Source of the DNA: Puniceicoccales bacterium
Lineage (GTDB): Bacteria; Verrucomicrobiota; Verrucomicrobiia; Opitutales; JAIRLG01
NCBI GenBank assembly: GCA_031288595.1
Contig: JAITRB010000007.1
Span: 1 to 32,000 of the forward strand
Direction of reading: 5' to 3'
Length of the DNA stretch: 32,000 bases
Positions 4,030-4,378 of the stretch are shown here, piece after piece. Below the pieces are notes generated by a model. The model saw only the letters and a list, made by a program, of their open reading frames with translations, was not told where the DNA came from and searched no databases. Both the position numbers and the translations under genes were made by a program. The stretch's first letter is position 1. Every line of letters starts with the position of its first letter.

Positions 4030-4378
4030 ATGGCGAGAGCTTGTCCGTATTGTCGAGGGGAGAGGAGCATGGGAGAATGTCCTGGGTGTTGGGAAAGAAT
4101 TTTCTCTCTTGCGGGTGTTTCTTCCGCGCGATGGCCCTTTGCGGAGCAAAGCTAGCGCCGGCGCGGAGCGCCGGTGCTCAGGTCGCAGCCCTTTTCTGGA
4201 AGAAGGGGGCTGCGACCGGCCATCGCGCGGACCTAGAAACTCTCTGCCGATTGGAGGGGGCCCCGAAAAGCTCTCTTTTTTCGAATGATGGAAGAGAAGA
4301 CTGCAACGTGTCTGGAGATCAGGGCTTATCGGCTTTGCTTGGCCTGGAGAATTTTGGGAAGCAAAGGGATGGATGCAC
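4030..4378 (+). repeat. copy A of a ~350-nt paralogous non-coding unit (partner at 10101-10463); contains cloverleaf element 1
   Basis: Aligns by eye along its whole length with 10101-10463, from ATGGCGAG to GGATGCAC, in the same orientation. Roughly three quarters of positions are identical, and about 90% in the palindromic core. Indels outside the core break any common reading frame. Both copies keep a CTCTTTTTTCG run (T6 at 4276-4281). Confidence 0.8.
4124..4230 (+). repeat. cloverleaf nested-palindrome element, copy 1
   Basis: Closing stem of 13 bp, 4124-4136 with 4218-4230. Hairpins: CTTTGC-GGA-GCAAAG (4137-4151); GCGCCGGCGC-GGA-GCGCCGGTGC (4155-4177); GGTCGCAGCCCTTTTCT-GGA-AGAAGGGGGCTGCGACC (4181-4217). 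Confidence 0.85.

Follow-up and report, generated by a model that had tools for sequence, protein, structure and literature searches.

What is the ~350-nt non-coding unit that stands twice in a 32-kb stretch of verrucomicrobial DNA (contig JAITRB010000007.1 of the Puniceicoccales bacterium assembly GCA_031288595.1, positions 1 to 32,000 in full; hereafter the window), once downstream of xseB (copy A) and once downstream of ftsK (copy B), and why does each copy have a cloverleaf-like fold at its center? A reading made from the sequence alone had offered two answers, a duplicated structured small RNA (sRNA) gene or a conserved 3'-untranslated-region (3'-UTR) module. We arrive at a different one. 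The cloverleaf is probably (we put this at about 0.6) a member of a lineage-specific set of dispersed intergenic palindromes, each a four-way junction of ~100 nt, which resemble repetitive extragenic palindromes (REP) and the bacterial interspersed mosaic elements (BIME) built from them.

We found that the cores of both copies fold into a perfect four-way junction in the minimum-free-energy structure as well as in the centroid structure, which bears out the central cloverleaf that had been proposed. The core of copy A (element E1) lies at 4123-4231 and that of copy B (element E3) at 10194-10298. In this layout, the closing stem GCGCGATGGCC/GGCCATCGCGC surrounds hairpins of 6, 11 and 17 bp joined by 2-nt linkers, and it continues outward beyond a small internal loop; in copy B, the stem is extended by TTCTTCC/GGAGGAA. 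With DNA parameters, the copy A core reaches -58 kcal/mol on the + strand and -55 kcal/mol on the - strand, and the copy B core reaches -58.5 and -57.8 kcal/mol on its two strands. Both folds have z-scores of about -10 and were matched by 0 of 200 shuffles.

The two cores have company. A hairpin scan first revealed other perfect intergenic hairpins of 18-19 bp, each within a further four-way junction, and junctions were detected with two detectors, one based on exact pairing and one on RNAfold. We found six four-way junctions of 43-52 pairs each in the window (6 per 32 kb), against a best value of 36 pairs, and those with long loops, in eight dinucleotide shuffles of the window. All six form the same fold on both strands under DNA parameters (z -9.8 to -12.9), and the strand-to-strand energy difference is at most 3 kcal/mol. 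Besides E1 and E3, these are E2 at 6600-6714, in the spacer between murC and an atpA-like gene (21-bp closing stem, hairpins of 7, 6 and 18 bp; z -12.9); E4 at 13003-13102, in the lpxK-(tRNA-Val)-ftsK spacer; E5 at 17602-17700, between the convergent ybeY (+) and a lipase-like gene (-); and E6 at 20226-20328, 46 nt downstream of tRNA-Leu and upstream of atpB.

Contigs of relatives (L006, L007 and others named below) were obtained via FtsK and XseB homologs. Nearly all named FtsK homologs are labelled Puniceicoccales, Opitutales or other Verrucomicrobiota, the closest being 85% identical; XseB relatives came from L020 only, whose contig stops within xseB. Among relatives with FtsK 68-85% identical to that of the window, we found ten further elements: L006 475-567 and 3178-3283, L007 2934-3039, L017 479-577, L019 9423-9532 and 9571-9649, L020 1029-1125, 2702-2796 and 4519-4626, and L023 3484-3558. 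Every element, in the window and in the relatives, is intergenic and near gene ends. No junction element was found in 22 kb and 15 kb of L021 and L022, which are more distant Puniceicoccales-type genomes; in L001, a 4.5-kb Logan contig, the compared genes and E2 are identical to those of the window. The sequence-only reading had itself named a common dispersed repeat as the finding that would count against it, and this is in substance what we see, since the architecture of the cores is common to four other window elements and to the ten elements of relatives.

This architecture consists of a closing stem around three neighbouring hairpins, of which two are short, with 6-11 bp, and the third is long, with 9-22 bp, and it has joints of at most 2 nt, and it occurs in two sequence types. 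Type I has 12 elements, which we aligned short hairpin first. Its closing stem ends in ..C(C/T)TT(T/G) on the 5' side and begins with CAAAG.. on the 3' side; the first hairpin has 6-7 bp (GATTCC, GAGCCC, GCTCCC or GATTTC), the second has 6-9 bp, mostly GCCCGC-NNN-GCGGGC, and is followed by a 1-2-nt linker, and the long arm has 9-22 bp of sequence that is unrelated between loci. Type II consists of the cores of copies A and B, the L006 ortholog of B and L020 4519-4626; its closing stem reads GCGCGAYGGCC, its short hairpin reads CTTKGC, and its other two arms are longer and variable. A type I covariance model recovered every type I element (E=1e-9 to 4e-15), among them E2 (44.4 bits, E=9e-11), E4 (E=6e-10), E5 (E=8e-10) and E6 (E=1e-9), the last being the sole type I element of the window with its long arm first on the + strand. 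It also returned one extra truncated candidate at the start of L007 and nothing else notable, and it did not match type II. Copies A and B are thus members of a smaller family by sequence, alike in architecture, and the four type I elements of the window are unrelated in sequence to the copy A/B cloverleaf.

The stems are kept paired while their sequence changes. In the alignment of type I modules, each cut by its own predicted fold, 99% of cells are paired and double-sided changes occur in 21 of 28 pairs, a result equalled by 0 of 500 shuffles; when partners are slid by 1-3 columns, pairing falls to 36-48%. G-U pairs are rare (~6 of 308 cells), and the mispairs of type I divide evenly between G-T and A-C on the two strands (5:5). 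Single loci behave alike. Between E2 and its L020 ortholog, both short stems are unchanged, all three loops differ, and the long arm varies by G-C to A-T and A-T to G-C swaps; between E4 and L006 475-567, there are one compensated pair, one wobble and one repaired mismatch. In type II, 3 of 64 predicted pairs among A, B and L006 have double-sided changes and ~12 have one-sided changes, mostly G-C to G-U.

The loops are of a type that is stable in DNA. We found that 41 of 48 hairpin loops are triloops, with 21 GNA and 9 TNC, the latter being GNA on the opposite strand, so GNA is found, on either the one strand or its complement, in 30 of the 41 triloops. The closing pair of the short hairpins is almost always C-G, which gives tips of GCGGAGC, GCGAAGC, GCGCAGC or GCGTAGC. 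GCGNAGC mini-hairpins and d(GNA) triloops have exceptional DNA stability that depends on the closing pair (PMC13037366, PMC3201870). The nearly pure Watson-Crick pairing, the equal stability of the strands and these DNA-type triloops together suggest a constraint on the DNA, or on both strands, rather than on one RNA strand.

Several observations on loops and arms stand beside this result. The loops of E2 are CAA, GAA and GTC in the window, and in its L020 ortholog (2702-2796) all three are GGA, which is a convergent change to one triloop; GGA also caps all three hairpins of copy A and occurs in several other elements of L020 and L006. The long arms of E2 (6655-6693) and of the L007 element (~2986-3025) have the common core GCCGGAGGGG(G)AAGG / CCTTCCCCTCCGGC, so long arms are seemingly drawn from a shared pool rather than made anew locus by locus. 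On one side, many long arms are rich in purines.

Elements come, go and trade arms among genomes whose FtsK is in each case ~85% identical to that of the window. Where copy B lies, a type II element is present in the window and in L006 (the two orthologs are 92.5% identical), and in L007 there is a type I element whose long arm leads. The L006 ortholog keeps the cloverleaf and has lost ~150 nt of the 3' flank, T6 run included; L007, which shares its lineage with L006 and whose small lipoprotein is nearly identical, retains the 3' flank and the T6 run. With L007 2934-3039 and L006 3178-3283, these very close relatives have different types in opposite arm order at the same point downstream of ftsK. 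Elsewhere, the ftsK-downstream spacer has 242 nt and no junction (L017) or 65 nt and no element (L018).

Other spacers remain occupied. The lpxK-ftsK spacer holds an element in every genome examined; the E4 site is filled also in L006, L017, L019 and L023, and probably in L007 at the contig start. In this spacer, L017 and L019 have the closing stem and short hairpins in common and unrelated long arms. The atpA-xseB spacer has an element in L020 (4519-4626), with the same closing stem and short hairpin as A and B, and none in the window; this L020 element and that at 1029-1125 differ too much from the window spacers in their surroundings for insertion boundaries to be placed. Hence, elements persist at some sites while arms, and sometimes whole elements, are exchanged.

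If the cloverleaf is an element of its own, what is the longer unit around it? Copies A (4029-4439, +) and B (10100-10525, +) give a single collinear same-strand match in sensitive blastn (70% over 433 columns, E=4.6e-60), as expected of the collinear duplicate that had been described, and blastn of both regions found no third copy of the ~410-nt unit in the window. The landmark ATGGCGAG (4030-4037 and 10101-10108), the landmark GGATGCAC (4371-4378 and 10456-10463) and the T6 runs (4276-4281 and 10357-10362, +) were all recovered, and identity is indeed highest in the cloverleaf core (88%) and moderate in the 5' flank (75%) and the 3' flank (63%). The unit does not end at GGATGCAC, where the sequence-only reading had closed it; the likeness extends 61-62 nt further, into the coding end of ftsK.

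This right end discloses the origin of copy A. The last 43 nt of copy B are ftsK coding sequence, in which 10483-10525 encode the final residues of the gamma domain, and copy A has a relic of the ftsK 3' coding end on the - strand at 4398-4439. The relic is 71% identical to 10483-10525 over the last 42 nt, with a local score of 18 that was equalled by 0 of 5000 shuffles. Relatives that have no element, such as L018, conserve this ftsK end as well, so it is native to ftsK, and the transfer went from there to the xseB locus rather than the other way. Because the likeness of A and B reaches into ftsK coding sequence, copy A is no self-bounded mobile unit but a segmental duplicate. Hence, the ~410-nt unit is a segmental duplication of the ftsK-downstream spacer, including 43 nt of ftsK, that now lies downstream of xseB (stop codon at 4461-4463).

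The left end agrees with this origin. The stretch ATGGCGAG...CCGTATTAT is similar to the C-terminal end of the coding sequence of a small lipoprotein gene, which is convergent on ftsK in L006 and L007, where it encodes 113-124 aa and where the spacers are orthologous to copy B. In the window, this gene is decayed (9859-10087, +), with a stop codon in frame following ...ERDILLT and two or more changes of frame, and copy B lies between it and the ftsK stop (10483-10485, -); tblastn found no relic of the small lipoprotein upstream of copy A. The duplicated unit is thus the spacer of two convergent genes plus part of the ftsK coding end, without ends of its own. As had been noted, the unit has no terminal inverted repeat (TIR) or target-site duplication (TSD) at its ends, yet the closing stem of the cloverleaf is itself an inverted repeat of 11-14 bp. 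Window positions 3034-4029, ~1 kb of lower GC content (51%) between the glgP start and copy A, contain no open reading frame (ORF) that matches Pfam; together with copy A they make ~1.4 kb without a recognised gene, which is unusual in a compact bacterial genome.

Several known classes were rejected for the cores or the unit. ARAGORN found only the three real transfer RNAs (tRNAs) of the window and no cloverleaf among our elements, Rfam RF00005 gave the same result, and a tRNA-like RNA was rejected since the arms of copies A and B have 6-17 bp and triloops and there is no 7-nt anticodon loop. The blastn and Rfam check that the sequence-only reading had proposed was run and gave two copies in the window and no RNA family: Rfam 15 at gathering score had no match in the window besides tRNAs, sub-threshold matches to the two units were at chance level (E 0.19-10), and the whole window ranked by E-value gave tRNAs and artefacts on long hairpins. 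The sub-threshold matches to CRISPR-DR, AS1726, HIV_FS2 and Metazoa_SRP were rejected as hairpin artefacts; HIV_FS2 (32.7 bits; 17651-17685) falls on E5 and Metazoa_SRP (23.8 bits; 20222-20331) on E6, both owing to long perfect stems.

A protein gene was rejected as well, since the indels between A and B (1, 5, 2, 5, 7, 5 and 1 nt) are not multiples of three and the overlapping ORFs have no Pfam match. Six-frame translations of both cores, searched as one chimeric query, matched nothing in 5.8 billion proteins, a negative to which candidate crowding may contribute. The unit is therefore non-coding, as had been thought. It is likewise no classical MITE (miniature inverted-repeat transposable element): the 410-nt unit has neither TIR nor TSD, and the junctions have a closing inverted repeat and no flanking direct repeats. 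Integron attC sites were rejected because the stems have no GTTRRRY/RYYYAAC core sites, end in CTTTG/CAAAG or GGCC/GGCC, and are perfect helices with housekeeping neighbours. Plasmid and phage records gave no blastn match for the unit, signature patterns of types I and II gave 0 matches in viral contigs, and the pattern GATGGCCCTTTGC-N3-6-GCAAAGC gave only chance matches inside unrelated genes in GTDB genomes and JGI metagenomes.

Compared with what defines REP and BIME, the elements are extragenic and fold stably on either strand, as a four-way junction and not as a single hairpin. We suggest that they act as single-stranded DNA and have a function at gene boundaries. Either strand, once unpaired, would fold into a very stable junction capped by C-GNA-G mini-hairpins, and the occasion could be replication, a transcription bubble, the transcript itself, or cruciform extrusion under supercoiling. 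Perfect pairing may be maintained by selection, by hairpin-templated (quasipalindrome) correction, or by both. Quasipalindrome template switching can alter both arms in one step, so it would leave perfect stems with few intermediates, and whole arms would be traded between copies. That the cloverleaf is more alike between A and B than the flanks are would follow from the constraint on its stems.

As for the effect on the cell, an intergenic junction could form a barrier at transcript boundaries, as a 3'-exonuclease block or a read-through brake, and could also be a structure-specific protein-binding site on DNA. REP/BIME-type intergenic structures are 3'-exonuclease barriers or read-through brakes and bind gyrase, HU or IHF. 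A boundary effect seems the most likely here because the elements sit between genes, as REP and BIME do in enterobacteria. The 3'-UTR role that had been proposed is possible, though it would belong to the whole element family and not to the 350-nt unit.

Several points weigh against this interpretation. Pfam annotation shows no transposase in the window, whether REP-associated tyrosine transposase (RAYT) or other, and the elements have no conserved flanking tetranucleotide or target duplication; because none of these was seen, mobility is deduced from presence/absence and arm swapping only. The copy numbers rest on a 32-kb window and short contigs and not on whole genomes. The paired percentage of type I is inflated because the modules were cut by the predicted fold of each sequence, a step that leaves the double-sided changes at aligned scaffold positions unaffected. 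Among 7 cases in co-directional contexts, 6 have the long arm leading in the mRNA sense, which is suggestive only and hints at a polarity at the RNA level that a purely DNA-level model does not predict. In type II, G-T exceeds A-C mispairs 9:1 on the window + strand, which would agree with function on one strand only, be it RNA or DNA, or with strand-biased C-to-T mutation.

The last two points are also arguments for an unlikely rival, in which the junction is a functional RNA motif that acts only in transcripts and on one strand, with DNA palindromy as a by-product. It might be a 3'-UTR or intercistronic exonuclease stop, a termination signal without a U-tract, or a tRNA-like processing signal for RNase P, RNase E or YbeY. 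The placement of all elements between genes and close to gene ends suits it, as does the occupation of the lpxK-ftsK and murC-atpA spacers, with compensated stems, across 68-85% protein identity. However, the type II wobbles favour a strand that is antisense, both at copy A and at L020 4519-4626, to the genes on either side, type I has no strand bias, and G-U pairs are nearly absent, unlike in typical RNA families. The C-GNA-G triloops, present on either strand, are not the GNRA or UNCG tetraloops of RNA; the helices are perfect and contain neither internal loops nor unpaired nucleotides that are conserved; and there is neither a U-tract beside any element nor a matching Rfam family. Decidedly unlikely, in our view, is that the palindromes are selfish or neutral, products of template-switch errors and gene conversion that are tolerated between genes and have no cellular role. 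This agrees with our preferred reading on origin and differs from it in function only. Gain, loss and swapping among close relatives, perfect stems with few intermediates and the strictly intergenic positions all fit, and a junk-tolerant genome would suit copy A in its ~1.4-kb gene-free stretch and copy B beside a decayed gene. Against it stand the constant architecture, a scaffold sequence conserved across lineages at 68% protein identity, the strong enrichment of GNA triloops and the convergence of three loops of one element on GGA. Hence, the scaffold and the loops indicate selection or a specific machinery.

That the ~350-nt unit is a duplicated, independently transcribed + strand sRNA gene ending at the T6 run is very improbable. 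Two copies are kept, their core is well folded, a conserved T6 run is common to A, B and L007, and the G-U wobbles of copy A fit the + strand. But we found no sigma-70-like promoter upstream of either copy on the + strand, and the scan for intrinsic terminators was silent at the T6 runs, as it was at the elements, whose flanks are not T-rich. The T6 run with its weak palindrome, which had been put forward as a possible plus-strand terminator, is thereby without support, the more so as L006 has the cloverleaf without the T6 segment and L007 has the T6 segment with a different cloverleaf. The 3' flank has no conserved structure (its consensus fold is weak, at -19 kcal/mol with a covariation term of 0), the right end of the unit is a piece of ftsK, its 5' end is matched in L006 and L007 by the C-terminal coding end of the small gene alongside, and no Rfam family matches. 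An independent sRNA gene of ~250 nt is therefore unsupported, because promoter and terminator are missing, the 3' fold is weak and the pieces of the unit travel separately in orthologs. Scarcely credible is a site-specific recombination or replication signal, be it a folded single-strand site like integron attC or CTX attP, a mimic of a Holliday junction, or a signal for priming. Folding as single-stranded DNA, the conserved stem base CTTTG/CAAAG with a hypervariable center and the stable DNA triloops would suit such a site. Yet no integrase, Xer-type gene or cassette organisation is near, the neighbours are housekeeping genes, GTTRRRY/RYYYAAC core sites and extrahelical bases are absent, and six sites per 32 kb of core genome would be unusual.

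A bolder version of the REP/BIME-like reading, possible but doubtful, takes the elements as undescribed modular 'cloverleaf' DNA elements, with a constant GCGNAGC-capped scaffold and an exchangeable hypervariable arm, which are actively inserted, swapped and re-perfected within one Puniceicoccales lineage by a dedicated structure-specific machinery. In this version, the machinery would be a new single-strand transposition or recombination system, or a junction-recognising RNA/DNA processing that uses the elements as intergenic punctuation.

The elements lie among housekeeping genes, which were annotated by Pfam, with tRNAs by ARAGORN. In order, the window has glgP (124-3033, -), xseB (4461-4778, -), an ATP-synthase-alpha-like gene (4977-6563, -), murC (6794-8248, -), tRNA-Met (9629-9705, -), ftsK (10483-12933, -), tRNA-Val (13304-13380, +), lpxK (13553-14833, -), ybeY (16899-17525, +), a lipase-like gene (17805-19856, -), tRNA-Leu (20096-20180, +), atpB (20692-21852) and atpF (22185-22748), and beyond these ftsW, an RNase E/G gene and ddl. 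The ATP-synthase alpha/beta-family gene at 4977-6563 is isolated between xseB and murC, distant from atpB and atpF, and L020 has the same arrangement. At 28939-29418 (+), a CesT-family protein, similar to type III secretion chaperones, stands beside a GNAT acetyltransferase, possibly as a toxin-antitoxin-like or host-association pair. In L019, three tandem SocA_Panacea-domain genes (1806-4926), each with a small, antitoxin-like partner ORF, lie near the atp operon.

REP, BIME and Correia elements have effects on the stability of transcripts, on termination, on supercoiling and on the rearrangement of genomes, and, to our knowledge, dispersed palindromes have been studied almost only in Proteobacteria and Firmicutes. 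The family described here comes from a poorly known verrucomicrobial lineage and is distinguished by its closed junction, its conserved scaffold with a hypervariable arm, and its loops, the most stable triloops known in DNA. If these features hold genome-wide, the family would offer a natural system in which to study how DNA that forms cruciforms and junctions is produced, maintained and used by cells, and it would represent a class of structure that gene finders and RNA-family scans miss or that is miscalled as a tRNA-like sRNA. For annotation, the '350-nt sRNA candidate' should be recorded as a repeat element within a segmental duplication and not as an sRNA gene.

How do these elements compare with systems already known? 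They have the four-helix cloverleaf outline of tRNA; unlike tRNA, they have arms of 6-22 bp with triloops, perfect helices and no T-loop or D-loop motif. Like MITEs, they are small and non-coding, show presence/absence polymorphism, and have a closing stem equal to terminal inverted repeats; unlike MITEs, they have no target-site duplication and no similarity to insertion-sequence ends or transposases, and their interior consists of three palindromes. Mitochondrial GC-rich palindromic clusters and the repetitive hairpin elements of sponges are also short hairpin repeats that invade spacers, turn over fast and lie nested or adjacent, but they are organellar, mostly single or double hairpins of unrelated sequence, with no constant four-way scaffold described (PMC2800124). 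The tips of our short hairpins carry the GCGNAGC mini-hairpin motif, which has been treated as an isolated motif of 7-8 nt in vitro or in a few origins (PMC13037366, PMC3201870), whereas here it caps a larger dispersed junction.

The closest likeness is to REP and BIME of enterobacteria and pseudomonads. Both groups are strictly extragenic GC-rich palindromes that fold as single strands, are modular and occur in either orientation; and both vary among close relatives and are found between convergent genes and inside operons. REP/BIME are numerous, typically with >100 copies of one consensus per genome; here, type I elements have a scaffold in common, and the count is 6 elements in the 32-kb window. 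The differences are that a REP consists of one imperfect 20-40-nt hairpin and a BIME of several REPs in a row, whereas each element here is a closed four-way junction of ~100 nt, and that the window has no RAYT gene and the elements no GTAG-type conserved flank that we could see. In the open-access literature, searches for intergenic repeats that form four-way junctions or cloverleaves, in Verrucomicrobia or in other bacteria, turned up no account of them. Dispersed extragenic palindromes as such are well known, and what appears to be new is their closed four-way form, in which the scaffold is constant and one arm can be exchanged.

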